In this document: piece after piece, positions 1-63,250 of the stretch
How the letters are laid out: each line of letters starts with the position of its first letter
How positions within the stretch are numbered: the stretch's first letter is position 1
Virus record (IMG/VR): IMGVR_UViG_3300045988_173816
Location: 220,027-284,026 of that record
DNA from: a virus
Reading direction: 5' to 3' (one strand)
Length of the DNA: 64,000 nt
The notes under the pieces: model-generated
Databases searched by the model: none
Told to the model about the DNA's origin: nothing
The model's input: the letters and a program-made list of their open reading frames with translations, nothing else
Position numbers and translations under genes: made by a program

Positions 1-1311
1 GTTTTCCACCAATTTAAACGTGACGTTACAGATGCTGAGATTGTAATTGTAATTGGTATGTCTGGGTCTGGTAAGTCGTTTGAAATGAAGATGTTAGCTA
101 CACAGTTTGCAGCTAATGATAATATGATTATGACTATCAATGACTATGAAGGTGGAGAATACAAAGGTCTAGGTCAATTGCTTGCTGAAGATTTCCAAGT
201 TGTTTCGTTGGATTTGGGAATGGGTTCAGGTCGTTACCTCGACCCAGTTCCGATTGTTCCAACTGGTGATGAAGAAATGGACAATACCTTGTTTACTCGT
301 TCTCGTAAGAATATTATTGACTTGTTCAGAGCAGTAGCTGGTTTGGAAACCTTGAAGAAGTACGCTTGGATTCCTTTAATTATTGAGCGTGGGGTTGACT
401 TGTTTTATAGTAACTATGGGGTATCGATTGACCCTCAAACGTGGCACGCGCTAGAGGGTTGCTCTATTTATACAGTATATGAGTATTTGAAAAAATATCG
501 TCCGAATTTAGATGATGTTTTAAACTCTATTACTGAGGAAGATAAAAATATTTTAAGTGAAGAAGATATTAAAGAGTTGTACAAAGACGCTTTAAAAGAC
601 TTTCAAAAAGACTATCTTTATTTCTTGGAAACCTTTGGTTCTTATTTTGAAAAAAGTAAGAAGTTGAACAACTACTTTAAATATCCGATTTACTTAAAGG
701 ATATTATTGATGCAAAATTAGTTATTTGTGACTATAACATGCGTGGGGTTCCAGAAAGTCAGTTGTCTGAATTGGATGCTATTCTTATTCCTATGAATGC
801 AGCAACTGTAGCTTATTACCGTACTGTGTATCCTTTCTCACGTGGTCTTTACAATGTGAAGATTTGGGAGGAGTTGCAACGTTTCAGCTCTCTTCCAAAT
901 GCAGTAGAGATTTTGAAAACTCCAATCACAGGGGGTCGTAAAGCAGGTGATATTAACATTGTTGCTTCCAATGATCCAGTTAAATTGGTTGAAAAAGATG
1001 AGTTCTCCTTGTTTGCTAACTACACATTAGCAATGGTTGGTAAGATTAAGTCCCCAGTTTATCAAGAGATTGTATGCAAGGCTCTCGGTATCACTGATTT
1101 AGCTGATGAATTAGCCGAGATTGGTTCTGTTATCGAAGAGGATGAGGGTTTGACTGCGGGTTATGATGAGGTTCATGCAGAACCTTATAAGAAAGCCTTT
1201 GTTTTGAAATTGAACTCTGGGGAATCTTCAGTTGTAAAAGCAGACTTACCTCGTGCTTTAAGTGATACTCCACTCTTCAAGACCGGTGTGATTGCGCAAG
1301 ACAAACAGTAA
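1..1311 (+). CDS. VirB4/TrsE-like (HerA-FtsK superfamily) P-loop ATPase, 5'-truncated by the window edge
   Basis: Frame 1 is open from nt 1 (VFHQFKRDVTDAEIVIVIG precedes the listed Met). Walker A GMSGSGKS, then NDYEGGEY (cf. DPxGEY of conjugative VirB4-type ATPases), a Walker-B-like VKIWEE and a GGRKAG motif. Confidence 0.55.
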   Translation, partial: VFHQFKRDVTDAEIVIVIGMSGSGKSFEMKMLATQFAANDNMIMTINDYEGGEYKGLGQLLAEDFQVVSLDLGMGSGRYLDPVPIVPTGDEEMDNTLFTRSRKNIIDLFRAVAGLETLKKYAWIPLIIERGVDLFYSNYGVSIDPQTWHALEGCSIYTVYEYLKKYRPNLDDVLNSITEEDKNILSEEDIKELYKDALKDFQKDYLYFLETFGSYFEKSKKLNNYFKYPIYLKDIIDAKLVICDYNMRGVPESQLSELDAILIPMNAATVAYYRTVYPFSRGLYNVKIWEELQRFSSLPNAVEILKTPITGGRKAGDINIVASNDPVKLVEKDEFSLFANYTLAMVGKIKSPVYQEIVCKALGITDLADELAEIGSVIEEDEGLTAGYDEVHAEPYKKAFVLKLNSGESSVVKADLPRALSDTPLFKTGVIAQDKQ

Positions 1312-1332
1312 GATAGTTTAGGTGATTTGAAC

Positions 1333-1506
1333 ATGATATTATTAAGTTTAGTGCTTTTTCTAGGAGGTATCCTTTGGGGAGTTTCAAACTCTATAACCTC
1401 TGAGAAGTTAAAAGAAGAGGTTAAGAAGAGTCGTTTCCTCGTAATTGGGGTAGGTGTGGTCTATGTTTTAGTAGTCCTTGCAACAACGTTAGAAGGGAAA
1501 CACTAA
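1333..1506 (+). CDS. small membrane protein (57 aa, two hydrophobic segments)
   Basis: Hand-translated ATG 1333 to TAA 1504-1506: MILLSLVLFLGGILWGVSNSITSEKLKEEVKKSRFLVIGVGVVYVLVVLATTLEGKH. The stop overlaps the ATG of the next gene (TAATG). Below the ORF-track size cutoff. Confidence 0.5.
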   Translation: MILLSLVLFLGGILWGVSNSITSEKLKEEVKKSRFLVIGVGVVYVLVVLATTLEGKH

Positions 1507-3995
1507 TGGATTGGCGAAATTCAAATGATGATTTAACGAGACAATCAGATGCTCGAAGGGAGCGAGAAAATCAACCTTTTGAAAATGGGATTAGAGATAG
1601 AGACTCAGGGGGTTTCGGCGGTATGCGCCAAGGTCCAGGTGGCGACCCTTTAGCTCGTATGAGAGGTGCGCAACCTGACCCTTTTGCAAATCGAGTAGGT
1701 GGAGGTTTACCTCCTAGACAACCGTTTGGACAACCTCAAGGGTATCCACAACAAAACCAACCCCCTCAACATTTGAGTCAACATGAAGATTGGATGGATA
1801 AAACTTTTAAAGTAGTTACAGGTTTGTGGAAACATTTAACTTCTTATGTGTGGCCTGTCTTGTCTGAGTCTGATGATATGTTCAGAAGTGACTACAAACT
1901 AAGAAAAGGGTTAACTGCTGCTCTCTTCTATTATGGTGCAGTAGGTGGGTTCTCTTTCTTGTTTGGTTTGTTTACGAAGTTTGCAACTGCACCAGTTATT
2001 TTCGTATCTCTTGTAGGCGGTGGAGCGAGTGGTGGTATTTTCTTGTATAAGAACTCTCAGAATAAGGAGTGGGGGTTGATTGATGACTCTCCAAAGGAAG
2101 AGACTTACCCTCAAGCACCTCAACCGTCAGAGTTTGGCGCTCCAAGGGGTTTTATGGATGATGGTTTTGGTTCTCCAAATTCTAATCCTATGGGTGATTT
2201 TGGACAACCTCCAAGAAGAGAAATTCCAAATGAATTTAGAAACTTTGGTTCAAGTGGTGGTTGGGATGATGAAGAGGAAGAACCTCCATTTCCCAAAAGA
2301 CAAGGTTTTGAACCTATGATGAAACCAAATCCTACTCCATTTGATGATTTGGAAGAAGATGATTTAGAAACTCCTTCCAAGGGTATCCCCTTAAAAGGCG
2401 CAAGCGCTAAGGATATTTGGGGGAGCATAGACGATTCTGAAGATGATTTAGAAGATGAAACAGAAGAGACAGAGGGTAATTCAAATAGTTCCAGAGAAGA
2501 ATTAGAGAATCCTAAAGTTGAAGAAGTTTCCGAAAGTGCATTTAGTGCAGATTTAGCAGGTGGTATCGTTGAACCAGAGTTAGTTTCCCGTAGACTTCTT
2601 GTAGATAAGTATTTATCTCTTTTAGACGGTTCTAGCTTAAAACCTGATTGGTCTCGTGAGGTTCCAGAAGATAGTGTAGAGTTTAAACAATTAGAAACAT
2701 TCCTTCGAGACGCCCAAACAGGTGGAGTTAAAGGTTTGTCTGAGATGGATTGGGTTAATGTGAAGTCTATTACAGAGCGAGTGTCTGTATTTGAGATTAT
2801 TACTGATCGTCCAGAGAAATTAAAAGGTAAAGAAACTCTCTTTGCAAAAGAGATTACAGAGTTGCTGAAAGACCAAATGAAGGGTTATTTTGGAGATAAT
2901 GTAACCACTACTGCAGTTGGTAAAGGTAGTCGTATTGCAATTACTATCTTTAAGCAAACAGGTACTTCCTTTATGTTGAGAGATTTGATTGAGTCGAGTA
3001 AAGATTTCTTCTTAGACACGAAAAATGAACTTCCAGTTGTATTCGGAGCTGATGAATATGGAGAACCGATTCTTCTTGATTTAGCAAAACACACAGGTAC
3101 AATTATTGCAGGGATGGCTCGAACAGGGAAGTCTGTTCTTGCTACGGGTATCGTTAATCAAATGATGGCTTTAAACTCTCCTCGTAAGGTTCAAGTCGTA
3201 GCTGGTGATATGAAAAACAAAGACTCTGACTGGTATCAGATTACCTTACCTCACTTGCGTAAGTTTGCAACAGGTACAAAAGCGATTATGGACTTGCTTG
3301 ATTGGGTTGTATCTGAGGAAGCCCCAAGAAGAAAGAGATTGATTGGTGACCAGTTGAAAATTCAAAACTACAATGCGAATTGTTCGGATGAGTCTGAGCA
3401 GTTGCCTTACTTATTTGTAGTGTTGGATGAAATTATTTCTTTTGCTGAGAAGTTAGACAAAGATGAAAAAGCAGTGTATAAAGCTTATTTGAGTGAAATT
3501 TTAACTGCTTTCCCTAATGTCGGTATCTTCTTAATTTTCGTACCTCATCAACTACACAATGATTACTTCCCTAAAACGGCTTCTCGTATGGTGGGGAATA
3601 GATTTGCAGTTAAGGCAGGTCAACCAATTCAGAAAACGATTTGGGAAGACTCTTATCGTCAAATTGACTTCCCAACCACCAACACAGGTGACTTTGCTTA
3701 CACTCTCGCTGGGTCTGATGAGCCTAAGTTCGGTCACGCTCCTTTGATTATGAGCATGAGTGGTGGTAAAGAGCGTTTAGATAAGTTGTATGAAACTCAG
3801 CGTAAAATGTGGACGAAGTTATACCCAGAAGAAGCAGCTACATCTGCTTATGTCACTCGTTTGAAAAATGAGCAGGCAAGTGCAACGTTAGGTAAGCTCG
3901 GTATTCCAGTTTCGGACACGGATTTCGCAGAAGAAGACTCTTTACGTTTTCCTAAGTCTAATACAAGTAATGTAGACTTTATTCGAGACATTTAA
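1506..3995 (+). CDS. FtsK/SpoIIIE-family DNA translocase-like ATPase with disordered P/Q/G-rich N-terminus, TM segments and acidic linker
   Basis: Walker A IIAGMARTGKSV (nt ~3111-3134), then DMKNK...LPHL, LDWVVSEE..RRK, QNYN and Walker B LPYLFVVLDEI, colinear with the FtsK motor domain. Hydrophobic stretch AALFYYGAVGGFSFLFGLF...VIFVSLVGGG. No recognisable gamma winged-helix at the C-terminus. Confidence 0.8.
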   Translation: MDWRNSNDDLTRQSDARRERENQPFENGIRDRDSGGFGGMRQGPGGDPLARMRGAQPDPFANRVGGGLPPRQPFGQPQGYPQQNQPPQHLSQHEDWMDKTFKVVTGLWKHLTSYVWPVLSESDDMFRSDYKLRKGLTAALFYYGAVGGFSFLFGLFTKFATAPVIFVSLVGGGASGGIFLYKNSQNKEWGLIDDSPKEETYPQAPQPSEFGAPRGFMDDGFGSPNSNPMGDFGQPPRREIPNEFRNFGSSGGWDDEEEEPPFPKRQGFEPMMKPNPTPFDDLEEDDLETPSKGIPLKGASAKDIWGSIDDSEDDLEDETEETEGNSNSSREELENPKVEEVSESAFSADLAGGIVEPELVSRRLLVDKYLSLLDGSSLKPDWSREVPEDSVEFKQLETFLRDAQTGGVKGLSEMDWVNVKSITERVSVFEIITDRPEKLKGKETLFAKEITELLKDQMKGYFGDNVTTTAVGKGSRIAITIFKQTGTSFMLRDLIESSKDFFLDTKNELPVVFGADEYGEPILLDLAKHTGTIIAGMARTGKSVLATGIVNQMMALNSPRKVQVVAGDMKNKDSDWYQITLPHLRKFATGTKAIMDLLDWVVSEEAPRRKRLIGDQLKIQNYNANCSDESEQLPYLFVVLDEIISFAEKLDKDEKAVYKAYLSEILTAFPNVGIFLIFVPHQLHNDYFPKTASRMVGNRFAVKAGQPIQKTIWEDSYRQIDFPTTNTGDFAYTLAGSDEPKFGHAPLIMSMSGGKERLDKLYETQRKMWTKLYPEEAATSAYVTRLKNEQASATLGKLGIPVSDTDFAEEDSLRFPKSNTSNVDFIRDI

Positions 3996-4019: not shown

Positions 4020-5063
4020 TTGTACAAGAACATGGAAATTACATATCCAATTAGTAGTTCTAGGTTTCTGCTTGCAATGCAAGTATACGCTAGAAAAATG
4101 GCTTCTTATGAAACTTATGAAGAGGTTAAAAAGAGGGAGTTTGAAAGAATTTCTCTCTTCCGTCCTCTCCCTACAATTTCAAGAGAAAGCATTAAGACAG
4201 AGGTTGTAGAAGAGAGTCCTCGGTATCTTCTCGATACTGAAGGTTCTGAAAATGAGACAGTTGATTTAGATTCTCTGTTTGAAGGTTTTGAAGATATTCA
4301 AGATTCAGATTGGTTAACTTCTATGAAGAGTAAAGAGGAAGTTGAGGTTAGAGATGAGGAAGAAGAGCAAGACCCATTACAAGGAGTTTCTTTTGCAAGT
4401 TTAGGTTTGAGTAGTAGTTCGTCTGATGATGAGCAAGAGTTGGAGCTACAAGAGTTTGAGGTAGACCCTTCAGAGGATGAAGATGAATTTTCCGACCCTT
4501 TTTCAAACTCTCCAAAATCGTCTCTAACCAATCTTGGTTTAGACGTGGATAAACTATCGACCTCAGAAGAAAAATCAAATCTGAGCCAATCTGAAACTTC
4601 TGAGAGTGATTTTGAGAACGAACCAACTAGGGTAGAGTTCAAAGAAGAGATTTTCCGTTCGGACTATGTGGGTAAGAGAGAGCCTTGGACTTATGTTGCA
4701 AAAGAAAAAGAGGTTGTAAAATCTCCACAAACCCAACCAAGGGTATCCGCACCAGAGGTTGCACCTCGTCAAGTTCAAGAGCCTAAACCAACTCCAATAC
4801 CTCAAGTTGTTTCTGCTCCTCAACCAAAACCAGTTGTTCGACCTAAACAGGTTGCGGAAAGACCTCAAATTCAACCTCAACCGCAAGTACAAGATAAAAC
4901 AGTTCGCATGGTAAATGAGGATTTCGTGTCTTACTGTCGTAGAAACTTGAGAGTTTCAGAGAAAGTTGCTTTAGGTTATTTCTCTCCTAGTGAGATAGAG
5001 TCTGCAGTAAGACAAGGTAAGGTTTTGCGTAAAGGTGGTCTTTTAATCTTTGCTCATTCTTGA
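4020..5063 (+). CDS. hypothetical protein, highly acidic centre and P/Q-rich region
   Basis: Long ORF in the operon frame; alternative ATG start at 4032. D/E/S-rich low-complexity core, then PQ-rich repeats (PKPTPIPQVVSAPQPKPVVRPKQ). No family recognised. Confidence 0.55.
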   Translation: MYKNMEITYPISSSRFLLAMQVYARKMASYETYEEVKKREFERISLFRPLPTISRESIKTEVVEESPRYLLDTEGSENETVDLDSLFEGFEDIQDSDWLTSMKSKEEVEVRDEEEEQDPLQGVSFASLGLSSSSSDDEQELELQEFEVDPSEDEDEFSDPFSNSPKSSLTNLGLDVDKLSTSEEKSNLSQSETSESDFENEPTRVEFKEEIFRSDYVGKREPWTYVAKEKEVVKSPQTQPRVSAPEVAPRQVQEPKPTPIPQVVSAPQPKPVVRPKQVAERPQIQPQPQVQDKTVRMVNEDFVSYCRRNLRVSEKVALGYFSPSEIESAVRQGKVLRKGGLLIFAHS

Positions 5064-5081: not shown

Positions 5082-5357
5082 GTGAAATTAGTTGAAAACA
5101 TTCGCTTTGTGAAAGTCAATGCAGAGGGTATCCCAAACGGCATCTGCGGAATTTGTTCTGCTTTGGTAGGTGGTTGGCTTGTGGTTCACGGAATTAAAGT
5201 GAAGCGCCAAGGGTCTCAATACAGAGTTTTATTCCCAGAGCGTAAATTATATGCAGAGGTTTATAAACCAGTAGTAACTGCTTTAAATCCAGAGTTTAAG
5301 AAAGAAGTAGATGCTCTTATTTTAAGTGAGTTTTACAAAGCATTAGAAAATCAATAA
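5082..5357 (+). CDS. SpoVG-like nucleic-acid-binding protein
   Basis: 91 aa. MKLVENIRFVKVNAEGIPNGICGICSALVGGWLVVHGIKV parallels the SpoVG pattern (V.DVR..KVN..G..KA.ASI...D.FVVHDIRV) from memory. Confidence 0.5.
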   Translation: MKLVENIRFVKVNAEGIPNGICGICSALVGGWLVVHGIKVKRQGSQYRVLFPERKLYAEVYKPVVTALNPEFKKEVDALILSEFYKALENQ

Positions 5358-5435: not shown

Positions 5436-7163
5436 GTGGCAGTAACAGAAGTTTCTTTGTACAAAGGTGGTTTTATTGATAAGTCTGCACCAATACAACG
5501 TTATAGGTTATTGGATAGTATTATTCAGAAAGCAAATGAGGATAAAGACCAAGTTGGTTTTCCAGAGTTAGCAGATAGTTTACTAGACTTAACTCCAGAG
5601 CAAATAGACCAAGTAATTGCTACAAAAAGTTCGTTAAAAGAGGGAGTAGCAAAAGGTTCACTTCGGTGGTATCAGACTTATGGAGTTCATTTTATTTTAG
5701 CAGCTCGTTCTGCTTTAATTATGGATAGTGTGGGATTAGGAAAAACTGCTACAGTAGCTTCGGTTATTAACCATGTAGGAGCTTTAAAACAGAGAACTAA
5801 AGGTAAACCTTTGCGTTATTTGTTTTTAACTGAGGTTGGTTTGGTCGCACAAGCTCGTAGAGAGCTAATTCGTTTTACAGGAGATTATGTAGCTACAACT
5901 ACGGGGGATTCAAACCAAGTAAGTGCTTTTATCAAAGAGCAAAAAGAGTTAGGGTATCCTAGTGGTGTAGTTGCTTCGTATTCAGCAGTGTCTTCAAGTC
6001 ATGAGTTTATGTTGTGGCTTGCGCACACTGTGAAGTTGCATGGTAAATTTGATTATTTCTTTATTGATGAGGGTTCGGTGTTAGGTTCTACTAAGTCTGA
6101 TATTTATAAAGCTTGTAAAACTGTACGGACAAAGTTTGCAAACCATGTGGTTGTAATGAACGCTACTCCTTTTGAGAAGTCTATTGAGGGAATGTACAAT
6201 CAGTTGAACTTTTTATTTCCAGATGTGATGCCTTTAAAGACTAAGTTTGAAGAGTTGTTTGTGAAGAAGTCATTTCAAACTCATCAAATTTTAGGCTATA
6301 AAGACCCAGAGTTGTTTAAGGTTTGTACTCGATTTATGGCTTTTGGAACGGCTCGTCAAGAGCTAGGGGTATCCGTTAAAAACTCGACTTGTGAATTGGT
6401 CTTATACAAGCCTTCACATTACCAAAACCAACTGTTTAGTAAGACTAGATACAAGCGTTATGTTTGGGACGAACCGACTTGGTTCGATCCAGATTTGGAG
6501 GTAACTCCAGAGGTTTTACCTAAGTTACAAGTGATAGAGGACTTATTTCAGTATAGGATAGGTCAAGATAAAGCTTTGATTTACGTTCACTCGGTAGAAG
6601 CTCAGAACATTTTAGTTCGGTTCTTAGAGGGGTTGGGTATAAAAGCTCTTACTATTAACGGTGAAGATAATACCCCTAAGAAGAAGGAAGCGAAGTTAAA
6701 AGAGTTCCATGAAGGTGATTATAGAGTGATTGTAACTAACTTGAAGAAGGGTTTGAATTTAGGTTTTATCAACCATTTAGTTTTTTATTCTTTCACAGGA
6801 AACTCAGGAATTACGAATCAGATTGAAGGTCGTATTGTTCGTAGTCAAGATATTCATGATAAGCATATTTACTTAGTTTTAGCTAGAAGAGAAGAGTATA
6901 AAGTTTTAGAAGATGCTTGTGTGAGTACAAAAGATAGATTAGCTCATACAAAACATGAGGTCAGTTTGTTGAACAACTTCTTTTTAAATCCAGACTTAGT
7001 AAACATAGTGGTAGAAGTTACCAAGCAAGAGATTTCGGAAGGTGCAAATTCTTCCATTGTAGCGGTATCTTATTCGAACCAAGATATGAATGGGGTTATA
7101 TCCTACCCTAAGTGGTCGGATGATTTAGAACAAACGAAAGCAGGTTTAACTTTACATGGCTAA
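5436..7163 (+). CDS. SNF2-family helicase/translocase
   Basis: LRWYQ...DSVGLGKTAT (motif I), FFIDEGS (motif II) and a C-terminal helicase domain (LIYVHS..ALTINGED....RVIVTNLKKGLNLG). Confidence 0.8.
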   Translation: MAVTEVSLYKGGFIDKSAPIQRYRLLDSIIQKANEDKDQVGFPELADSLLDLTPEQIDQVIATKSSLKEGVAKGSLRWYQTYGVHFILAARSALIMDSVGLGKTATVASVINHVGALKQRTKGKPLRYLFLTEVGLVAQARRELIRFTGDYVATTTGDSNQVSAFIKEQKELGYPSGVVASYSAVSSSHEFMLWLAHTVKLHGKFDYFFIDEGSVLGSTKSDIYKACKTVRTKFANHVVVMNATPFEKSIEGMYNQLNFLFPDVMPLKTKFEELFVKKSFQTHQILGYKDPELFKVCTRFMAFGTARQELGVSVKNSTCELVLYKPSHYQNQLFSKTRYKRYVWDEPTWFDPDLEVTPEVLPKLQVIEDLFQYRIGQDKALIYVHSVEAQNILVRFLEGLGIKALTINGEDNTPKKKEAKLKEFHEGDYRVIVTNLKKGLNLGFINHLVFYSFTGNSGITNQIEGRIVRSQDIHDKHIYLVLARREEYKVLEDACVSTKDRLAHTKHEVSLLNNFFLNPDLVNIVVEVTKQEISEGANSSIVAVSYSNQDMNGVISYPKWSDDLEQTKAGLTLHG

Positions 7164-7169
7164 GAAGAG

Positions 7170-8830
7170 CGCGGTTAGGATTTTTAGTAGGTACTCTATT
7201 AGGCTAGTGGAGGGTGTTTTGGGTTAGATTTTAATTGGTTTGAGGTTGTTTATGTTATACTAGATTTAGAAAGAGGTGAGAGAAATAGGCAAAAATGTTA
7301 AAAAGAATTTTACTGTTGTTAAATACATTGTCAAAAATACTGATATGAATGCATATTTCATGAGGTTGGCAATTTTAAGTACTAATTTAACAAATACACT
7401 TCTTTATTATCATAGACAGTGGTATTTTTATACTCAAAATGTATATTATACAGAACATCCAAATGAAAGTTTTAGACCTTACCGGTATAATGAAGAAGTT
7501 ATTGATGAATTGAAACGTTATATGTATGAGTATAATCAGAATAAGATTTTGTATGGGAAGAGACCTACTGATTTTATCACTTTTGGGTTAGATGCTTACT
7601 TCTTACATTTTTATTTTAAGAAAATTTGTCAATCCGATTATACAAATGATGACTTACCAGCTCAAGTGGCTCAACAAGTTACTCAAAAGGTTTCACAATC
7701 CTTTAAATCTTTTAAACAAGCTCGAAAAGGCTTTTTTAAAAATCCAGATAAGTATGATACTTGTCCGCAATTACCTAGATATAATAAAGGTAGTAAAATT
7801 TCTCCTTTATATTTTACAAATCAAGCTACTAAAATTAAAAACGGTGTTTTAAAATTCCCTAAGACCAAATTGACACTTCCCTTCACATATAAACCAAAAG
7901 GTAAATATACAAGGATGGAAGTCATTCATAGCTATGGGCAATTTGAATTACGTTTGGTTTTCGAAGAGACCGAAAACCTTAAATTTAGAGAAACAGATGT
8001 AGTGGCAGCTATTGATCCGGGCATAAGTAATCTTATAGCTATTACGACTAATAAAGGTCAGTCCTTATTAGTCAAGGATAAGACTGTAAAATACATCAAT
8101 CAATATGCAAATAAAGAAATTGCTAGAATAAAGTCAGCTCAAATGACAACTGGTGGTTGTGATAAAGTTCAAATGTCGAAACAATTATCAAAAATCTATC
8201 AAAAAAGACAAAGACGAATTGAACATTTGTTTTATGTGCTTGCTAAACATGTGTTAGCCTTTTGCTTAGAAAATAATGTTTCAAAATTAGCTCTTGGTAA
8301 AAATAAAGGGTGGAAACACACTTATAACAAAGGTAAAACTAATAATCAAAACTTTATTCAAATTCCTTATACTAGTCTCTATCGAAAAATACAAGATTTG
8401 TTAACTAAGAACGGAATTGAAGTAATAGAACAAGAAGAATCGTATACATCAAAAGCTTCTGCGATAGATTTAGATGAACTTCCAGTATTTGGAGAAGGAG
8501 ACCTTAATGTTAGTTTTACAGGTATACGGTTTGGAACGCATAGTCGATTGTATAAAACCGGAAAGGGAAATACCATAAACGCTGATATGAATGGTGCTTT
8601 AAATATTTTAAGGAAAGCTTTCCCAGATGTTGAAATTGAACTAAACGATTTACAATATTTAAAGAATCCGAAAGTTTTAAGAAACATGCAAGCCTAATCA
8701 GTAATAACTGTATAGGTGATGGGCGCATTTATGGGTATGCGCGGAGCATCTTTGTAGAGGTTCCGAAAGTACATTTATATAAACTGAATGTACTAATTCA
8801 TTGGTCGAACAACTGGAGAAAGGCTCACGG
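7170..8830 (+). mobile_element. tnpB-only IS200/IS605-type element (boundaries approximate)
   Basis: Contains a single TnpB ORF with no tnpA. About 110 nt of stop-rich non-coding DNA upstream and about 130 nt of non-coding DNA downstream before native-looking coding sequence resumes (~8830-8841). No GGTATC copy inside, unlike the flanks. Confidence 0.55.
7276..8697 (+). CDS. tnpB: TnpB-like RNA-guided nuclease (RuvC-like, zinc-finger-less subtype)
   Basis: RuvC I AAIDPGISNLIAITT, RuvC II EQEESYTSKAS, RuvC III INADMNGALNILRKA. No CxxC pairs between RuvC II and III (SAIDLDELPVFGEG...). GTG start; alternative ATG at 7343. Confidence 0.8.
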   Translation: MREIGKNVKKNFTVVKYIVKNTDMNAYFMRLAILSTNLTNTLLYYHRQWYFYTQNVYYTEHPNESFRPYRYNEEVIDELKRYMYEYNQNKILYGKRPTDFITFGLDAYFLHFYFKKICQSDYTNDDLPAQVAQQVTQKVSQSFKSFKQARKGFFKNPDKYDTCPQLPRYNKGSKISPLYFTNQATKIKNGVLKFPKTKLTLPFTYKPKGKYTRMEVIHSYGQFELRLVFEETENLKFRETDVVAAIDPGISNLIAITTNKGQSLLVKDKTVKYINQYANKEIARIKSAQMTTGGCDKVQMSKQLSKIYQKRQRRIEHLFYVLAKHVLAFCLENNVSKLALGKNKGWKHTYNKGKTNNQNFIQIPYTSLYRKIQDLLTKNGIEVIEQEESYTSKASAIDLDELPVFGEGDLNVSFTGIRFGTHSRLYKTGKGNTINADMNGALNILRKAFPDVEIELNDLQYLKNPKVLRNMQA

Positions 8831-8968
8831 GTATCCACTCTTGCGAAAGAAAACTAAAAAGCTTGCGGTTTATGTGAAACCTGAGTTACAGTCCGTTGAA
8901 CGCACTAAACGACTTCGTTCAGCAAAAGCAGAAGTAGATGAGATTTTAGAACGTCGAGGTTACTTCAA

Positions 8969-9178
8969 ATGAGGTTAGGTGACTTTTTAAGCCTTTCAGA
9001 TTTGCCTTTAGATAGTGAGTCTAAGGTTGAATTTTATGAGATGAAGAACTTTAAAGAAGACATTTTAGCTAATAAATTCTCAAACTTGTATATGATGGGT
9101 GACGGGGTTGGAGATAAAACTCACGCACCTTACGGTTTGTTGATTAACAGTTCTAACTTGATTGTTTTCTTTGAATAA
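8969..9178 (+). CDS. hypothetical protein
   Basis: ORF-track ORF, co-oriented. Its ATG overlaps the stop of a short upstream reading frame (ATGA). Confidence 0.4.
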   Translation: MRLGDFLSLSDLPLDSESKVEFYEMKNFKEDILANKFSNLYMMGDGVGDKTHAPYGLLINSSNLIVFFE

Positions 9179-9216
9179 ACAGTAGGAAAAGAAGAAGTAA
9201 ATAAGGAGATTGTGCT

Positions 9217-10035
9217 TTGAAGTCGTATTTATATCTATCTGATATTCACGCAAATTTTGAGGTATTAAAACAGTTGGAAACTTTACCAGAGTTCACAGAT
9301 GAGAATTGTGAAATTCGCTTTGGTGGTGACTATATTGACGGTTTCGAACTAAAACCAAATGCTACCTTAGATACCCTTCATTTTGTGAAGGGTTTGTGCG
9401 ATAATGGAAAAGCAAGAGCGATTGTAGGAAATCATGATATTTTCTTGTTAGATAGCGCTTTTCGTCCTTTTACGACTAATTGGTGGTGTTATAATGGTCG
9501 AGAGGAAACTCTTGCTAATTTGGGTATTCCTTTTGCTTCTGAGAGCGATTTAAGAGAGCAGTTGTTGTTTTACTTATATGATGAACTAGTTTGGTTGCGT
9601 TCCTTGCCTTATTATATAGAAGACGGTTCTAATATTCTAGTTCACGCAGGTTTTGAGTTAGATTTACCTTTGGACAAACAAGATACTGAGGGTATGGTTT
9701 GGACTCGTGAGTTTTACATTGACTCTTTAAACCATTTAACTGATGTAGATTTGCACCCAGACTTTAAAGGGAAAACAATTATTTCAGGACATACACCAAC
9801 TTGCACGATGAGTGAATACGAACACCCAGTTAATCCTTGTCAAATCTTGAAAGATAGTTTAGAATTGGATGGTAAACCTTTGATTACACGTTACTTTATT
9901 GATGGGGGTTCTAAGTCCGGTTCTGAGTTTTCTCGTATCAACTTATTAAAATTAGATGAAAATGGAAATGAAATTTGGCAAGGATATCTTAATGAGACAG
10001 GTTTTCATTTATACTCAGAGCCAACGAACGGGTAA
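9217..10035 (+). CDS. calcineurin-like metallophosphatase (PrpE/ApaH-type)
   Basis: YLSDIHAN, GGDYIDG, VGNHD, LVHAG and SGHTP motifs in canonical order. Confidence 0.75.
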   Translation: MKSYLYLSDIHANFEVLKQLETLPEFTDENCEIRFGGDYIDGFELKPNATLDTLHFVKGLCDNGKARAIVGNHDIFLLDSAFRPFTTNWWCYNGREETLANLGIPFASESDLREQLLFYLYDELVWLRSLPYYIEDGSNILVHAGFELDLPLDKQDTEGMVWTREFYIDSLNHLTDVDLHPDFKGKTIISGHTPTCTMSEYEHPVNPCQILKDSLELDGKPLITRYFIDGGSKSGSEFSRINLLKLDENGNEIWQGYLNETGFHLYSEPTNG

Positions 10036-31960: not shown

Positions 31961-32584
31961 ATGATTAAATTACAAGACATGGCTAACCGATTAGGTGTCA
32001 GCATAAAAACATTACAAAGATGGGATCGTGAGGGTATTTTAGTAGCTAAACGAACCCCAACTAATAGACGTTATTACACAGAAGACCAATACTTGTCTTA
32101 TGTAGGTAAATCTCAACCTAAAGGTTTAATTTTGGCTTACACAAGGGTATCCAGTAGAGGTCAAATAGATGATTTAATTTCACAAACAGAGTTTTTAAAG
32201 CAATTTGTAAATGCCAAAGGTGAGATTTTAGATGAAGTTATTTCAGATATAGGTTCTGGTCTTAACTATAACCGTAAGAATTGGAATAAATTACTTTTAG
32301 ATTATGTAGCTAAAGGTTTGGTGAGTAAAATCTATATCACTTATAAAGACCGATTTGTTCGTTTTGGTTTTGATTGGTTTGAGCGCTTTTGTAATTACTA
32401 TAACTGTAAAATTGTAGTAGTGAAAAATGAAACTACCTCACCACAACAAGAATTGGTAGATGATTTAATTTCGATTATCCATGTGTTTTCTTGTCGTATT
32501 TATGGTTTGAGAAAGTACAAGAAGGAGTTGAAGGACGATGAGAGCGTACAAGACAGAAATAGACCCAACTCCAAGTCAAATTGA
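31961..32584 (+). CDS. tnpA: IS607-family serine recombinase TnpA (MerR-like HTH + resolvase catalytic domain)
   Basis: LQDMANRLGVSIKTLQRWDREGIL (HTH) and ILAYTRVSSRGQIDDL (catalytic Ser motif). Confidence 0.85.
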   Translation: MIKLQDMANRLGVSIKTLQRWDREGILVAKRTPTNRRYYTEDQYLSYVGKSQPKGLILAYTRVSSRGQIDDLISQTEFLKQFVNAKGEILDEVISDIGSGLNYNRKNWNKLLLDYVAKGLVSKIYITYKDRFVRFGFDWFERFCNYYNCKIVVVKNETTSPQQELVDDLISIIHVFSCRIYGLRKYKKELKDDESVQDRNRPNSKSN

Positions 32585-33719
32585 GTTGATACATAAGACT
32601 TTTGGGTGTACTCGATATATTTACAACCAATTTGTATCTGAGAACTTAGAGAATTTAGCTTCGGATAAAGACTTTATTTCTGCTTTTGACTACTCAAAAA
32701 GAGTCAATAACGATCCTACTACACCTACTTGGTTAAAAGAAGTACCAAGTAAAGCAGTAAAACAAGCTTTAATTTATGCAGATAGGGCTTTTAAAGACTA
32801 TTTTTATAAACGCAATGGTAAACCTAAGTTTAAAAAGAAAGGTTTAAGTGAGAGTTTCTACCTCATAGGAACTATAAAAGTTGAGCGCCATCGTATATTT
32901 GTACCTGTTTTAAAGTGGCTTCGTTTGAAGGAGTTTGGCTATATTCCTAAGAACATCACCTCTGTAACAATTTCCATGAAAAATGGCAGATATTACATTT
33001 CTTGCTTATGTAAAGATGAAATTGATGAACGTATTCCTTTGTCTGACTACAATATGGGTATCGATTTTGGTCTGAAAGACCAATTTATTACAGAAGATAG
33101 AATTATACCTTCTATCAATAAGTCTTTGCGTATTAGAAAATTGGAACAACGTTTACGAAGAGAACAAAGAAAGTTGTCTCGTAAATATGAAGCAAATATG
33201 GTCGATAAGGTTTACTATCAATCCGGGGCTAAGAAAGGTCAACTTAAGTCTTATAAGTGGTTGAAACCTTTATCTGAGTGCAAGAATATTCAAAAGCAGA
33301 AATTGAAAGTAGCTCGTATCCGTGAGCGTTTAACTCGTATTCGAACGGAATATAATCGAAAAGCATTGCGTTCTTTAGTTTTAGAGCGAAAACCAAGCTC
33401 TATTACTATTGAAGACTTAGCAGTGTGTAATATGATGAAAAACCGTCATTTGAGTAAAACGATTTCAAAAGCGCAGTGGTATCAGTCTCGACTTTACTTA
33501 GAAAATTTGTGTAAAAAGCTAGGTATAAAATTGAGATTAGTAAGTAGATTTTATCCATCTAGTAAACTATGTTCGGATTGTGGTTTTAAGTATAAAGACT
33601 TGAAACTAAACGAAAGAGCTTGGACTTGTTCTAATTGTGGTAGTAAACATGATAGAGATGTTAATGCAGCCATCAATTTAGGACAATGTAAAGAATATAC
33701 TGTATTGACTGCAGTTTAA
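32538..33719 (+). CDS. tnpB: TnpB RNA-guided nuclease (zinc-finger-containing subtype)
   Basis: MRAYKTEIDPT N-terminus. RuvC I MGIDFGLKD, RuvC II ITIEDLAV, zinc finger CSDCG...CSNCG, RuvC III HDRDVNAAINL. Confidence 0.85.
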   Translation: MRAYKTEIDPTPSQIELIHKTFGCTRYIYNQFVSENLENLASDKDFISAFDYSKRVNNDPTTPTWLKEVPSKAVKQALIYADRAFKDYFYKRNGKPKFKKKGLSESFYLIGTIKVERHRIFVPVLKWLRLKEFGYIPKNITSVTISMKNGRYYISCLCKDEIDERIPLSDYNMGIDFGLKDQFITEDRIIPSINKSLRIRKLEQRLRREQRKLSRKYEANMVDKVYYQSGAKKGQLKSYKWLKPLSECKNIQKQKLKVARIRERLTRIRTEYNRKALRSLVLERKPSSITIEDLAVCNMMKNRHLSKTISKAQWYQSRLYLENLCKKLGIKLRLVSRFYPSSKLCSDCGFKYKDLKLNERAWTCSNCGSKHDRDVNAAINLGQCKEYTVLTAV

Positions 33720-51275: not shown

Positions 51276-52550
51276 ATGAGAAAACAAATTGCGTTATTAA
51301 GTTTATGTAGTATTGTGTTAAGTAGTTCTCCTTTTATGTTGAACTCTACACGTGTGTTAGCAGAGGAGAATAAACCAAGTCAAACTCAAAGTGTGGTGTT
51401 AAAGACTTTGGAGAGAGAAAAAGCTGAGGTAAAAACACAAGCTGAGAGGGTTGGTTTCTTACCAAGTGTCCTTATGGCTCTTTGGGTTCGAAACACTGAT
51501 TTTGGACTAAATCCAAGTGCGTTTTCGGTATCCGATTTTGTATCGGAATTGGTAAATAGTGATTCAGAGTTAGCTCAGAGGTTATTAGAAACAGGTAGCG
51601 CTGATGAAGCAGTTGCTTTGTTGTTTAAGTATAAGTATAGCAATGAGAATGATTTTGTAGGTTCTATGAACTCTGCTCTGTCTTTATCTTATGTAAAAGG
51701 TTTAGATAAAGAACTTTATTATAACGGTGTTAAACCTTTATACGATAAAAGTGAATTAAAGACTGGGAAACAACACAGACTGTCTTGGGTATCTTTAAAT
51801 CAAGATGCAGATTTACCCAGTGAACAGTTAGAATCTAAAGCCGATAGTTCTCTGGCTTTTGAAAGGGTTGGCGAAAAGCGTTTAGCTGAGAGTGGTGAAG
51901 TACGTTTTTTACTACCAACTGAGAATAAACATTGGTGGGAGTTTTGGAAAAAGGGGTTGTCTGAGAGTAAGATAACTTTTGAAAAGGAAACGGTTAACGC
52001 CCCTCAAAATGTTCTAGCTATTGCAAGTGTGTTTGCTAAGAAGTTAGGTTGGTCTTTTGACGGTGCTGGTACAGTTAAGACTTCTAATGGTTTATATGCA
52101 GTTGGTTCAGACAGTCAAAAAGTGCTTGTGAACAAGTTGGGTAAAGTTGTAGCAGTTTGGACAAAAGAAGCAAAACCTTATGGTTTTGAAGGGGTTCAAC
52201 AGATTGTTAAAGGTGCTAATGGGTATCTCACAATCGGTTTACGTTCAAGCAGTTTGTTAGAAGATACACCAAGTGTTGAGTTTGTTTTGAATAAAGAAGG
52301 TAAAGTAGATACAAACTTGTTACAACTCAGCTCAACTGAGAAGGTTGTAGGTACATTTACCTTATATGATGTAGGAACTCGTTATGTAGTTGTTGAAGAT
52401 AGTTCAACAGATACTTATAAAGTTCTCTCAGAATTTGGCGGACAAGTCGGTTCCTCAAATAAAGACGATATTAAAGGTGGAAACTTGGAGGATTTAGCAG
52501 TTTACACTCCAATTAAAACGGAGGTAGGTGTTCTATGGCTTCAAGTTTAA
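51276..52550 (+). CDS. secreted hypothetical protein
   Basis: Signal-peptide-like MRKQIALLSLCSIVLSSSPFMLNSTRVLAEE. Confidence 0.55.
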   Translation: MRKQIALLSLCSIVLSSSPFMLNSTRVLAEENKPSQTQSVVLKTLEREKAEVKTQAERVGFLPSVLMALWVRNTDFGLNPSAFSVSDFVSELVNSDSELAQRLLETGSADEAVALLFKYKYSNENDFVGSMNSALSLSYVKGLDKELYYNGVKPLYDKSELKTGKQHRLSWVSLNQDADLPSEQLESKADSSLAFERVGEKRLAESGEVRFLLPTENKHWWEFWKKGLSESKITFEKETVNAPQNVLAIASVFAKKLGWSFDGAGTVKTSNGLYAVGSDSQKVLVNKLGKVVAVWTKEAKPYGFEGVQQIVKGANGYLTIGLRSSSLLEDTPSVEFVLNKEGKVDTNLLQLSSTEKVVGTFTLYDVGTRYVVVEDSSTDTYKVLSEFGGQVGSSNKDDIKGGNLEDLAVYTPIKTEVGVLWLQV

Positions 52551-53800: not shown

Positions 53801-55477
53801 TTGGTTAGAAGTGGATCAGTTAAAACGTATTTAAAAGAGGGTGACATCATTGACAAGTCTTGGGAAGTGATTAAGAAGATTGGTCAAGGTGGGACTGCAA
53901 CTGTTTATTTGGTTCGAGATATTGAATTGAATCGGTATCTTGCATTGAAAGAGGTTCCAGTAAGAAATACTGCGAAGGGTAAGTTACAAGCTAAAGCAGT
54001 TATTGCTGAGATTAGCTTGTTAAAAACCTTGAGTCACCCTTCCATTCCTCGTATTATCAAAATGACTCATGATGCTCATTCAATTTTGATTATTATGGAC
54101 TATATTGATGGTTATTCTTTGCGAGATATTATTCGTAAGAAGAATTATATTCCAGAGTCTATGATTATTCAGTGGGGTGTAGCTTTGTGTAAAACCTTGC
54201 GTTATTTACATAATCATGAGCCTAAGATTATTTATCGAGATTTAAAACCACATAATGTCATGATTACAAATGAAAATCATTTGTACCTTATGGACTTCGG
54301 TATCGCAAAAGAGGTTACGCCTAATTTTGATTATAGTAAAGAACCAAAGTTGGGTACATTAGGTTTTGCAGCACCTGAGATGAGTGCTGATGCAGCATGG
54401 TTTGATGAGCGTTCAGATATTTTTGCTTTAGGTAGAACTTTATTTTTCTTAGCGACTAGAAATAGTCCTTCTGTTACACACATGCCAGATGGTACGCCTA
54501 TTCCGATTTTACCGATTCGACAATATGATTCATCTCGTTCAGTTGGTTTAGAAAAGATTATTCTGAAATGTACGGAGAAAAACCCGGAAGACCGGTATCA
54601 AACGATAGATGAAGTTCTTTATGATTTAGAGCATATTGATGAAATGTCTGAAGGGTTCAGAGCTAAGATTAAGCGCAGAGCGAATATGATTTATTTGTTA
54701 TTTATAACTTTAGTTTTAGGTTTTGTGTTAGTTGGGGGTGGCTTATTATACAGTCGCATTTCTGTTGCAGATACTTATAAGCAAGCTTTAGCCGCAGGGA
54801 AAACCTCTCAGTCTATTGACTCATTGTTGAAGGCTAGTAGTATTGCGCCAAGTGAGGTTGAACCTTACTTAGAGATGGTGAAGATTTATCGAGCTAGTGG
54901 TCATTTTACGAGTGAAGATGAGTTTCAATTGCTGGGTGCTTTGCAAACAAATATTCCAAGTTTGAAGGGTAAAGAAGGTGCAGGAGACTTGCTTTATCAA
55001 GTAGGTCAGTTGTATTGGTTCTATTACCCACAGAACGGTCAAACAAAGTCAGTTTCTTGGTTTGAGCAAGCTAAAGAGTTTGGGGTATCTAAAAAGAATG
55101 CACACTTACTTTCAATTTATTTGGAACTTGGTACATTCAAGAAAGGTATTTTAAGTTCGATTACAGACAACTCTGATAGTGGTATGTATAAGACTTATTG
55201 GGACGCTTTGAGCGAATTAGCAGTTGAAATGGGTGGTGACCCTCAGTTAGAGATTACTTATTTGGAGAGTGTCTTTGATGTAATTGACTCTTACTCAGGT
55301 GGTTTGAAGTCTGATGGTTTGACTTTAGAAGAGTTAACAGAAGTGTTTAATAAAGCAGTTGATTCGTTAAACTCTTATGAAGGTAAAACTGATGAGCAGA
55401 AGAAAACGAAGACTGAGTTACAATCGCGTGTAGATACAATTCGCAATAAGTTAAATACAACTTATGGTGTAAGATAG
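53801..55477 (+). CDS. Hanks-type Ser/Thr protein kinase with TM segment and non-PASTA extracellular domain
   Basis: GQGGTATVY, LALKEV, IIYRDLKPHNVMI, MDFGIAK, GTLGFAAPE. TM IYLLFITLVLGFVLVGGGLLY. No PASTA repeats seen in the C-terminal ~240 aa. Confidence 0.85.
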   Translation: MVRSGSVKTYLKEGDIIDKSWEVIKKIGQGGTATVYLVRDIELNRYLALKEVPVRNTAKGKLQAKAVIAEISLLKTLSHPSIPRIIKMTHDAHSILIIMDYIDGYSLRDIIRKKNYIPESMIIQWGVALCKTLRYLHNHEPKIIYRDLKPHNVMITNENHLYLMDFGIAKEVTPNFDYSKEPKLGTLGFAAPEMSADAAWFDERSDIFALGRTLFFLATRNSPSVTHMPDGTPIPILPIRQYDSSRSVGLEKIILKCTEKNPEDRYQTIDEVLYDLEHIDEMSEGFRAKIKRRANMIYLLFITLVLGFVLVGGGLLYSRISVADTYKQALAAGKTSQSIDSLLKASSIAPSEVEPYLEMVKIYRASGHFTSEDEFQLLGALQTNIPSLKGKEGAGDLLYQVGQLYWFYYPQNGQTKSVSWFEQAKEFGVSKKNAHLLSIYLELGTFKKGILSSITDNSDSGMYKTYWDALSELAVEMGGDPQLEITYLESVFDVIDSYSGGLKSDGLTLEELTEVFNKAVDSLNSYEGKTDEQKKTKTELQSRVDTIRNKLNTTYGVR

Positions 55478-62233: not shown

Positions 62234-62767
62234 TGCCGGGAAGATTGTTTTGAAGTAATTCATGGCAATTTAGGTTTAACGACTGTAAAAGGTCGCTAAA
62301 TCATTATAGCACAAGCGTAGTGTGCAACCACTATGTGAGTGCTTGAGATTCTTACTTAGTTAAGTAAGAACGCCTAAGTAGAAGGCTAATCTTCTACTAA
62401 CGCTCCTCAGCGATACGAGGTGACGACAACGGTTCGATTAGCGGGCTTAAAGCTAGTCAGATAAGGTTGGTGAGGTTTACTGCGCTCCAAGTCCAAGCAA
62501 TATGCGTGTGGAAAGGTATAGAGTTCTCCTTTTTCAGTAAATCAAGATTAAAACTCAGTTGCAAAACGGTGGAGACAGTTCCACTTATGGGTATCAAAAC
62601 TGTCGTAGAAGCCGTTTTTAAAATCCGATTGCTTTAGATGTCTAGGGTATAAAGCAATAAAACGCACGACAATTCCTATCTTACTAGACAGGGTAGGAAG
62701 TCAAAAACTTGTGGGTTCAACGGTTCTCCCACATAAGATACCAGAGCTGTTAAGGGTATCATATTTA

Positions 62768-62940: not shown

Positions 62941-63250
62941 TAACTAACTATTCTCTTAGCGCGCAGATTTTAGTTAGTGGAACCTGTTCTTGTTTTCGAA
63001 ATGTTTAATTTTAGTTTTAGGAACAGACATCCATAAAAGACAAAAAGAACAAGAAACAAACGAAACGCGTTCGTTTACAAACTTTGGTTTATTTTGAACT
63101 TGTTTTAATCTGATACCTCTTTTGTCAATGGGTATCGAATGAAAAAAAAATCAAGTTTCGCTTCTATTTAAACCAAACTCTTCCTTATGTTACTTTCGTT
63201 TAATTAGTAGTTGTCAGCTTCTTACCGAACGGGTACATTAGGGAGTTCAA

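Follow-up and report, generated by a model that had tools for sequence, protein, structure and literature searches.

We analyzed a 64,000-nucleotide stretch (hereafter the window) of the IMG/VR virus record IMGVR_UViG_3300045988_173816, which is part of a ~284-kb circular extrachromosomal element of the human oral microbiome and opens with two neighboring ATPase genes, one VirB4-like and one FtsK-like. Together, these ATPases probably power a strongly diverged type IV secretion system (T4SS) of Gram-positive type, that is, a conjugation module. The pair is known in kind; it is new, and very divergent, in its sequence and in the replicon that hosts it. The genuinely unusual feature of this DNA is an array of a polar hexamer, GGTATC, which is separate from the ATPase pair.

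The two ATPases, the small gene between them and their motifs were all found where a first, sequence-only reading of the window had placed them (coordinates are those of the window):

1–1311, + strand: C-terminal 436 aa of the VirB4-like ATPase, its frame open from base 1
55–78, + strand: Walker A motif of the VirB4-like ATPase, GMSGSGKS
142–162, + strand: DYEGGEY, the VirB4-type D-x-EG-EY motif of the same protein
859–885, + strand: its Walker-B-like motif, WEE
931–951, + strand: its GGRK motif
1327 or 1333–1506, + strand: small protein with two transmembrane (TM) segments, 59 aa from a TTG start and 57 aa as called on the contig
1506–3995, + strand: 829-aa FtsK/SpoIIIE-type motor (Pfam FtsK_SpoIIIE)
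3111–3134, + strand: Walker A motif of the FtsK-like motor, GMARTGKS
3411–3434, + strand: Walker B motif of the FtsK-like motor, LFVVLDEI

At full length the VirB4-like ATPase has 726 aa, and the whole gene lies at 7626–9806 of the corresponding locus on the source contig (L001). It reaches none of the curated thresholds among the Pfam AAA_10/CagE_TrbE_VirB and NCBIfam VirB4 models. AAA_10 scores 21–22 bits against a cut-off of 27.5, DUF87 and the TraG P-loop domain are further sub-threshold Pfam matches, and the top NCBIfam match, the VirB4-like conjugal transfer ATPase of the CD1110 family (conju_CD1110), has an E-value of 1.2e-8 but only 33.7 bits against a cut-off of 325. Both of the two best NCBIfam matches are VirB4 conjugation models. 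Because its scores lie under every curated cut-off, we regard the protein as belonging to a remote subfamily rather than as a canonical member.

As a single-sequence search of the PDB returned nothing meaningful, a family profile was needed, and it was built from 45 spread members, down to 16% identity. This profile matches VirB4 of Thermoanaerobacter pseudethanolicus (4AG5) with an E-value of 3.3e-20, 15 orders of magnitude ahead of any other PDB family (next best, ~1e-5). A Foldseek search with an AlphaFold2 (AF2) model of the protein likewise places TrwK/VirB4 of R388 (7o43) at the top (E 9e-7, ~660 columns), followed by 4AG5 and only afterwards by HerA and TrwB. The model is mediocre overall, with a predicted local distance difference test score (pLDDT) of 59 and a good ATPase core, and its TM-scores are low (0.25–0.5) for that reason. 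The motifs GxxGxGKS, D-x-EG-EY, [VI]WEE and GGRK are invariant or nearly so in the 45 family members, as are the Walker A G-K, D341, E584 and R606 as individual residues; 30 of the 45 match DUF87 in Pfam, 10 match AAA_10 and 9 the TraG P-loop domain. Judged from these comparisons, the first protein is a true, if remote, relative of VirB4 with intact catalytic motifs. The sequence-only reading had named a terminase or other family, in an element with no other T4SS genes, as the finding that would speak against its view. The sole PHROG match of the protein is indeed a terminase, but it spans 33 P-loop residues and we rejected that identity, and T4SS-like genes do lie upstream, outside the window (see below).

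The family is small. An exhaustive profile search of 1.84 billion cluster representatives recovered just 237 proteins at E <= 0.001, and a word-indexed homologue search returned only relatives of at least 51% identity, all on contigs of 230–300 kb. Among genome species representatives the sole match was a Lachnospiraceae metagenome-assembled genome (MAG), at 27% identity, and hence no cultured host was found.

The second protein had been described from the sequence as FtsK/SpoIIIE-like, with TM segments and a low-complexity N-terminus, and the searches bear this out. At 48.3 bits the Pfam FtsK_SpoIIIE match (PF01580) clears its cut-off of 24, an hhalign alignment to twelve genuine FtsK proteins has a probability of 97.9% over 267 columns (aa 478–765), and the PDB matches are FtsK (2IUS, E 5e-10) and, marginally, EccC. 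Its parts are as follows:

aa 1–95: indel-rich low-complexity region, rich in G, R, Q and P; the protein has a conserved N-terminal helix
aa 132–181: two-TM hairpin, as read from the sequence
aa 186–355: indel-rich acidic linker
aa ~356–480: conserved pre-motor domain, from the family alignment
aa ~480–760: beta motor, a single ATPase domain
C-terminus: short helical stretch and acidic tail, ending in a conserved F-[IV]-x-D-I

A hydropathy scan flagged one segment in the hairpin region (149–167). The N-terminus, with its hairpin and two low-complexity linkers, recalls FtsK in its architecture but is not the four-TM FtsK_4TM domain. No gamma winged helix was detected, as the earlier reading had cautioned: the motor has no Ftsk_gamma (PF09397) match, and the alignment to FtsK ends at aa 765, short of the gamma region of the template, with ~64 residues remaining. 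The AF2 model of this protein (pLDDT 38) is unusable, and the absence of gamma is read from sequence profiles. C-termini of the FtsK-like proteins are not conserved between clades. On profile evidence, the second protein is a membrane-anchored, single-domain FtsK-type motor without gamma. It combines a single FtsK-like domain, N-terminal TM segments, no gamma and a gene beside VirB4, the features of TcpA/ConQ-type coupling proteins.

The stop codon of the small gene overlaps the start of the FtsK-like gene (TAATG), pointing to translational coupling. Its product has two hydrophobic segments that form a two-TM hairpin, and its sole Pfam match is a weak one to YLATT, below the cut-off. A protein of 57–58 aa occupies the same position in the relatives that we group by VirB4 identity to the element as the 92%, 82% and 51% clades, and it could be a small membrane subunit of the T4SS.

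The order of the genes around the pair is strict on the source contig and in these three clades, which come from many independent samples:

1: ~850-aa protein (851 aa) with a signal peptide, a ~570-aa ectodomain and about five TM segments
2: TM-anchored hydrolase with GDSL and CHAP domains (725 aa), or with GDSL and Phage_lysozyme2 in the 51% clade
3: three proteins of ~185–215 aa, two of them with an N-terminal TM segment by hydropathy, and a 75-aa protein
4: ~400–460-aa protein with two TM segments (408 aa on the source contig)
5 and 6: 216-aa protein, then 403-aa protein
7 to 9: VirB4-like ATPase, 57-aa protein, FtsK-like motor
10: acidic proline-rich protein of 343–347 aa with a small conserved C-terminal domain (4020–5063, + strand)
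11: SpoVG-like protein (5082–5357, + strand; Pfam SpoVG, 2.2e-8)
12: SNF2-family helicase (5436–7163, + strand; Pfam SNF2-rel_dom, 5e-15, and Helicase_C)

The gene for the acidic protein, which has no Pfam or NCBIfam family match, always lies directly 3' of the FtsK-like gene in relatives. The SpoVG and SNF2 genes are the conserved downstream neighbors of the ATPase pair and mark the start of a replication and DNA-metabolism region. The pairing itself reaches further than this synteny: an FtsK-like open reading frame (ORF) follows VirB4 by 1–1.5 kb in 10 of 11 IMG/VR loci with VirB4 identities of 25–51%, and the VirB4/FtsK-like arrangement is also found in a Lachnospiraceae MAG. The replacement of CHAP by Phage_lysozyme2 between clades is what would be expected of a wall-breaching role.

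Close relatives also encode a protein similar to PrgA, the surface-exclusion protein of pCF10. In the 82% clade, ~40 kb upstream of VirB4 (L071, 5776–8802), a 1008-aa protein comprises a signal peptide, a coiled coil, a globular domain, a Pro-rich region and a C-terminal TM segment, with no LPXTG, and its globular domain matches PrgA (PDB 6z9k) with an E-value of 2.5e-7. A homologue is present in a 93% clade (L067, 5476–8169).

Taken together, the ATPase pair, the hydrolase, the signal-peptide/multi-TM and bitopic proteins and the PrgA-like protein follow a pattern of Gram-positive conjugation systems, known from TcpF/TcpA/TcpG/TcpH, ConE/ConQ/CwlT/ConG and PrgJ/PrgK/PrgA. The sequence-only reading had recognized the pair as a Firmicutes-type conjugation signature; the hydrolase and the signal-peptide, multi-TM and anchored ~200-aa proteins upstream, together with the PrgA-like protein of relatives, extend that view. 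According to this model, the 726-aa VirB4-class ATPase would energize channel assembly and the passage of substrate through the membrane. The 829-aa protein would be a hexameric coupling protein of the FtsK/TcpA class, anchored by two TM segments and carrying a long, flexible acidic linker, which would take the DNA substrate, predicted to be single-stranded, at the membrane and feed it to the channel. A partner protein, rather than a DNA sequence, is the probable target of its conserved acidic C-terminal tail, which would serve for docking. The upstream TM-anchored CHAP or lysozyme hydrolase plausibly breaches the cell wall, the 851-aa protein, with its signal peptide, large ectodomain and about five TM segments, is a candidate VirB6-like channel protein, and the three bitopic ~200-aa proteins could act as scaffolds. 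The PrgA-like surface-exclusion protein encoded ~40 kb upstream in close relatives is a likely partner.

A close organizational parallel is the Tcp locus of pCW3 from Clostridium perfringens (TcpF, TcpA, TcpG, TcpH), which combines the same VirB4-class ATPase and gamma-less, two-TM FtsK-type coupling protein with a peptidoglycan hydrolase and a large polytopic membrane protein in one block. The element differs in that its motor is ~300 aa longer, with two long low-complexity regions, and matches TcpA with an E-value of just 0.014; its VirB4 falls under all curated thresholds, no relaxase was seen, and it is a 284-kb replicon with its own phage-type replisome. ICEBs1 (ConE/ConQ/CwlT/ConG), Tn916 (Orf16/Orf21) and pCF10 (PrgJ, PrgK, PrgA) share the logic of the ATPase pair and the N-terminally anchored CHAP or lysozyme-type hydrolase, and the close relatives of the element add the PrgA-like protein. 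In contrast to these systems, the coupling protein of the element directly follows VirB4 with the 57-aa gene between them, and VirB4 is preceded by the 216- and 403-aa conserved cytoplasmic proteins, which belong to no known family.

The window wraps around the end of contig k127_141467, with record base 1 at window position 51,606 and base 284,100 at 51,732. The ends of the contig overlap by exactly 127 bp (window 51606–51732), equal to the assembly k-mer, and this exact overlap closes the element into a circle of 283,973 bp; in a second assembly, 284,026 bp long, the break lies at another point. The guanine-plus-cytosine (GC) content is about 36% in the window (36–39% is given for the element), and GC skew is positive throughout. 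Of the 56 ORFs that reach 110 aa or more, only four are not on the + strand, and each of these overlaps a + strand ORF. The first 8 kb had no blastn match in collections of plasmids and phages. A putative signaling set of the window comprises a Ser/Thr kinase, PP2C, an FHA domain and a NinI-like phosphatase (regions 9217–10035, 53801–55477 and others).

GGTATC is the top polar 6-mer of the window, with 110 copies on the + strand and 5 on the − strand where about 15 are expected, or one in ~0.58 kb. Its occurrence does not depend on codon phase (39/33/32 in the three phases, where a shuffle of synonymous codons expects 20 +/- 4), and its spacing is more even than random, with a coefficient of variation of 0.64 that lies under all 2,000 random placements. 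The flanks favor S at −1 and C at +7 ([G/C]GGTATC[C]). Nine sites (420..3527), all on the + strand, fall in the span of the ATPase pair, which is not enriched relative to the rest of the window:

420, 1087, 1366, 1741, 2382, 2562, 3147, 3232 and 3522, + strand: GGTATC sites in the ATPase-pair span

The polarity is uniform over the ~120 kb examined and also in loci 29–49 kb upstream in relatives, reached via an insertion sequence (IS) 607-type TnpB. Per 22 kb, the + and − counts are 39/0 in the 92% clade, 41–51/1–2 in the 82% clade and 40/6 in the 51% clade, while the site positions turn over: 0–1 of 8–13 are shared when each of the three closer clades is compared with the 51% clade. The polar array is limited to clades with VirB4 identity of at least 51% and was seen in the window and in L001, L004, L005, L009–L018, L022, L067 and L071. 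Seven related lineages keep the ATPase pair without a clear polar non-coding word. A 27%-identity clade (L055–L061; IMG/VR contigs of 240–268 kb, GC 46%) has a polar hexamer of its own, TARCGG, at 60–72 copies per 22 kb on the coding strand versus 2–4 on the other, in phases 1 and 2 and in intergenic DNA; it is absent from phase 0 because a stop codon would arise there. Polar hexamer arrays may thus be a recurring, lineage-specific trait of these giant elements. An excess of CAGATG in L002 was also considered as a polar signal and rejected, being a phase-locked coding repeat.

Several observations weigh against a conjugation module. No relaxase or oriT was seen in domain scans of ~120 kb (window, L001, L005, L022, L067 and L071), the remaining ~160 kb of the element lying outside them. 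The 851-aa and ~185–215-aa proteins have no family match, and the VirB6-like and VirB8-like labels that might be given to them derive solely from topology. The motor is nearer to genuine FtsK than to TcpA, the pCW3 coupling protein (6o1w), and a distant relative (L019) has an M23 TM-anchored hydrolase after VirB4 and no FtsK-like gene within 10 kb. To our knowledge, transfer has been demonstrated for no such element. The same side of the balance holds what suggests a phage: 40 loci of the VirB4-like family in IMG/VR (L027–L066), on contigs of 160–295 kb, are filed as viral, and the window contains a phage-type replication set (DnaB, a DnaG-type zinc finger, a 1307-aa PolA and ParB-HNH), the NinI-like phosphatase, a PHROG kinase match at 1.7e-51, a Phage_lysozyme2 protein, eight tRNA genes and genes on one strand. 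Moreover, in BFVD the VirB4 model finds its best fold matches among proteins of Bacillus jumbo phages (1e-10 to 4e-8), led by A7KUX5 (1.3e-10) and with gp156 of phage G among the three best (E 6e-9), and phage G itself (L026, 87.7–93.3 kb) encodes a TrbL_4/VirB6-like gp153 and a gp155 with TraG P-loop and AAA_10 matches. FtsK-like genes occur in 209 phage records, Bastillevirinae among them, and an oral phage database holds thousands of unclassifiable oral "huge phages" (PMC12297358). The module might accordingly serve a process of a jumbo phage or phage-plasmid, such as envelope remodeling, DNA delivery or exclusion, or maintenance of a carrier state, with no conjugation involved; its precedents would be the unexplained T4SS-like genes of phage G and the FtsK-like genes of Bastillevirinae. 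This reading is the main rival, but we consider it unlikely. No capsid, portal or terminase was matched among 54 window proteins searched against Pfam and PHROGs, and Pfam scans of the fetched flanks detected no structural or packaging genes either, whereas phage G and the Bastillevirinae are proven virions with capsid and tail genes nearby. These phages do resemble the element in being large replicons of Firmicutes that combine replication genes of phage type with neighboring T4SS-like ATPases and a TrbL-like protein, but sequence homology to them was not detected beyond the P-loop, to which the relatedness to gp156 is likewise confined. Among 50,697 phage records, tblastn returned no match to the VirB4-like protein or to either of two upstream proteins, and for the upstream 531-aa and 441-aa proteins no relatives turned up in phages or in the PDB. 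Surface-exclusion proteins of the PrgA type are a feature of conjugation, and comparable oral giant elements were 16-fold enriched in the cell pellet (PMC12340149). As a separate observation, gp153 and gp155 lie beside gp156, an 825-aa P-loop protein, and these three form a T4SS-like trio in a proven jumbo phage.

Other functions have been considered for the ATPases themselves. The FtsK-like motor matches the PADLOC SspH ATPase domain at 3.9e-18, and also mad8; the VirB4 family profile weakly matches DptH and EccC; and NCBIfam EccC/EssC matches reach about 1e-7. These would fit SspH/DptH-like phosphorothioate-sensing restriction, HerA-type defense or type VII (EssC-like) secretion. Every one of these matches covers the shared P-loop motor only, EssC has three ATPase domains versus one here, and the neighbors are a wall hydrolase and membrane proteins; SspF/G, Dnd, SIR2, WXG100, EssA/B and the FHA-EssC architecture are not present in the cluster. 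We therefore rejected defense and type VII secretion identities as restricted to motor-domain similarity, and regard them as highly improbable. The sequence-only reading had instead tied the motor to the hexamer, proposing GGTATC as its guidance signal. In that case the FtsK-like protein would be a double-stranded DNA (dsDNA) translocase oriented in the manner of the FtsK orienting polar sequences (KOPS), the SpoIIIE recognition sequences (SRS) or the TraB recognition sequences (TRS), for segregation, dimer resolution or dsDNA transfer. The motor fold, the membrane anchor, the long linker and the polar short motif are indeed shared with FtsK/SpoIIIE and with Streptomyces TraB (TRS/clt), and the greater closeness to FtsK than to TcpA is in keeping with this. 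The array, moreover, is strongly polar, independent of codon phase and under-dispersed, and it keeps its density in the 92%, 82% and 51% clades while sites turn over, as a distributed guidance signal would; in a distant clade that encodes an FtsK-like orthologue the polar hexamer is a different one, TARCGG, and C-termini of the motors differ between clades. However, no gamma/winged-helix reader was found in the ~64 residues past the motor. The gene is operonic with VirB4 in every lineage, whereas TraB acts alone, and seven lineages keep the pair without a clear polar word. The motif, a 6–7-mer, is neither a G-rich 8-mer nor a local clt cluster, its density is ~20 times that of KOPS, and KOPS/SRS-like 8-mers and the lactococcal-type Chi GCGCGTG are absent from the window. 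The same polarity is expected of primase or Chi-like sites, and the element encodes DnaB and a DnaG-type zinc finger. We thus find guidance of the motor by GGTATC quite improbable.

Because there is no gamma reader, the motor is in an operon with VirB4, seven lineages lack a clear polar word and another clade uses TARCGG, a tie between motor and motif is unsupported. The array is a separate, genome-wide polar signal of the clade that is not specifically linked to the FtsK-like motor. The strand that carries GGTATC corresponds in sequence to the leading strand and is the template of the lagging strand, so that roles as primase sites or Chi-like sites fit equally well; literature searches for GGTATC returned primer sequences only. 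A version in which the gamma-less motor is oriented by the clade-specific hexamer (GGTATC or TARCGG) via its C-terminal region or a partner, and pumps the 284-kb circle in one direction, strikes us as a long shot. If true, this would amount to a KOPS/FtsK analogue carried by a plasmid or phage, with another reader module and ~20-fold higher site density, coupled to a T4SS channel.

Among described entities, those nearest to the element are the Inocles, giant plasmid-like extrachromosomal elements of oral Streptococcus for which VirB4 and VirD4 are reported on all members (Kiguchi et al. 2025, PMC12340149). Both are closed circles of hundreds of kb from the mouth, with co-oriented genes, strong GC skew, tRNAs, IS elements, an S26 signal peptidase, and VirB4 with a coupling protein. 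The element differs in its GC content (36–39% versus the 32% or 24% reported, PMC12340149), and neither the window nor the fetched flanks showed the InoC marker (~454 aa, N-terminal Replic_Relax PF13814). Both Inocle_004 primers fall inside a canonical 843-aa VirB4 in metagenomes (L006–L008; homologues on contigs of up to 368 kb), the forward primer has no occurrence in the window, and BLASTP of the 843-aa protein against the VirB4-like ATPase aligns the P-loop only (E 8e-4). This excludes the Inocle_004 type and not the whole Inocle group, since Inocle taxa share few protein families. Next to the primer-bearing VirB4 lies an 887-aa protein that combines G5 repeats with a CAP domain.

Elements of one kind appear to be classified both as virus (IMG/VR) and as plasmid-like (Inocles): virus catalogues file such elements as "huge phages," and a similar oral group has been described as Inocles. 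The T4SS-like module and the PrgA-like gene argue, as far as gene content can, for contact-dependent transfer. The conserved and intact module of VirB4, coupling protein and hydrolase, with the PrgA-like protein, is the most concrete sequence evidence for spread by cell contact, and it supplies specific genes to knock out or track. As curated T4SS models miss this VirB4 clade entirely, censuses of conjugation systems undercount such elements. Separating the ATPase pair from the GGTATC array, in turn, directs the question of the motif toward readers linked to replication or recombination.

Mobile and tRNA genes of the window are listed below:

7276–8697: TnpB-family gene, 473 aa
31961–32584: resolvase accompanying the IS607-type TnpB
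32538–33719: TnpB-family gene of IS607 type, 393 aa
61596–63937, + strand: eight tRNA genes (Leu, Arg, Lys, Phe, Val, Asn, Pro, Met)

The 473-aa TnpB is single-copy and has no IMG/VR relatives; it follows the SNF2 gene and is absent from relatives L005 and L009. Other relatives (L012–L014) carry a different TnpB, which truncates SNF2 to 443 aa. The spot behind the SNF2 gene is an insertion hotspot. The IS607-type TnpB is 89–91% identical to copies on contigs of 315–325 kb and 28% GC (L070, L074) without the GGTATC array, and this identity points to two different giant-element families that have exchanged the IS, perhaps within one host. Further genes of the window putatively encode HipA_C, MerR, S26 signal peptidase and Phage_lysozyme2 proteins.

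The tRNA genes, which we counted above among the points that disfavor a conjugation module, sit in a 3.6-kb stretch where ORFs do not exceed about 90 aa. Two of the five reverse GGTATC copies form hairpins with a forward copy (GATACC-N12-GGTATC) at 62737–62760 and 63112–63136; tRNA-Phe follows one of them after 8 bp and tRNA-Asn the other after 115 bp. Another hexamer, AGATGA, occurs 72 times on the + strand and once on the − strand, TCATCT being nearly absent from the + strand (about 12 expected), an asymmetry that looks stronger than coding bias alone would yield.

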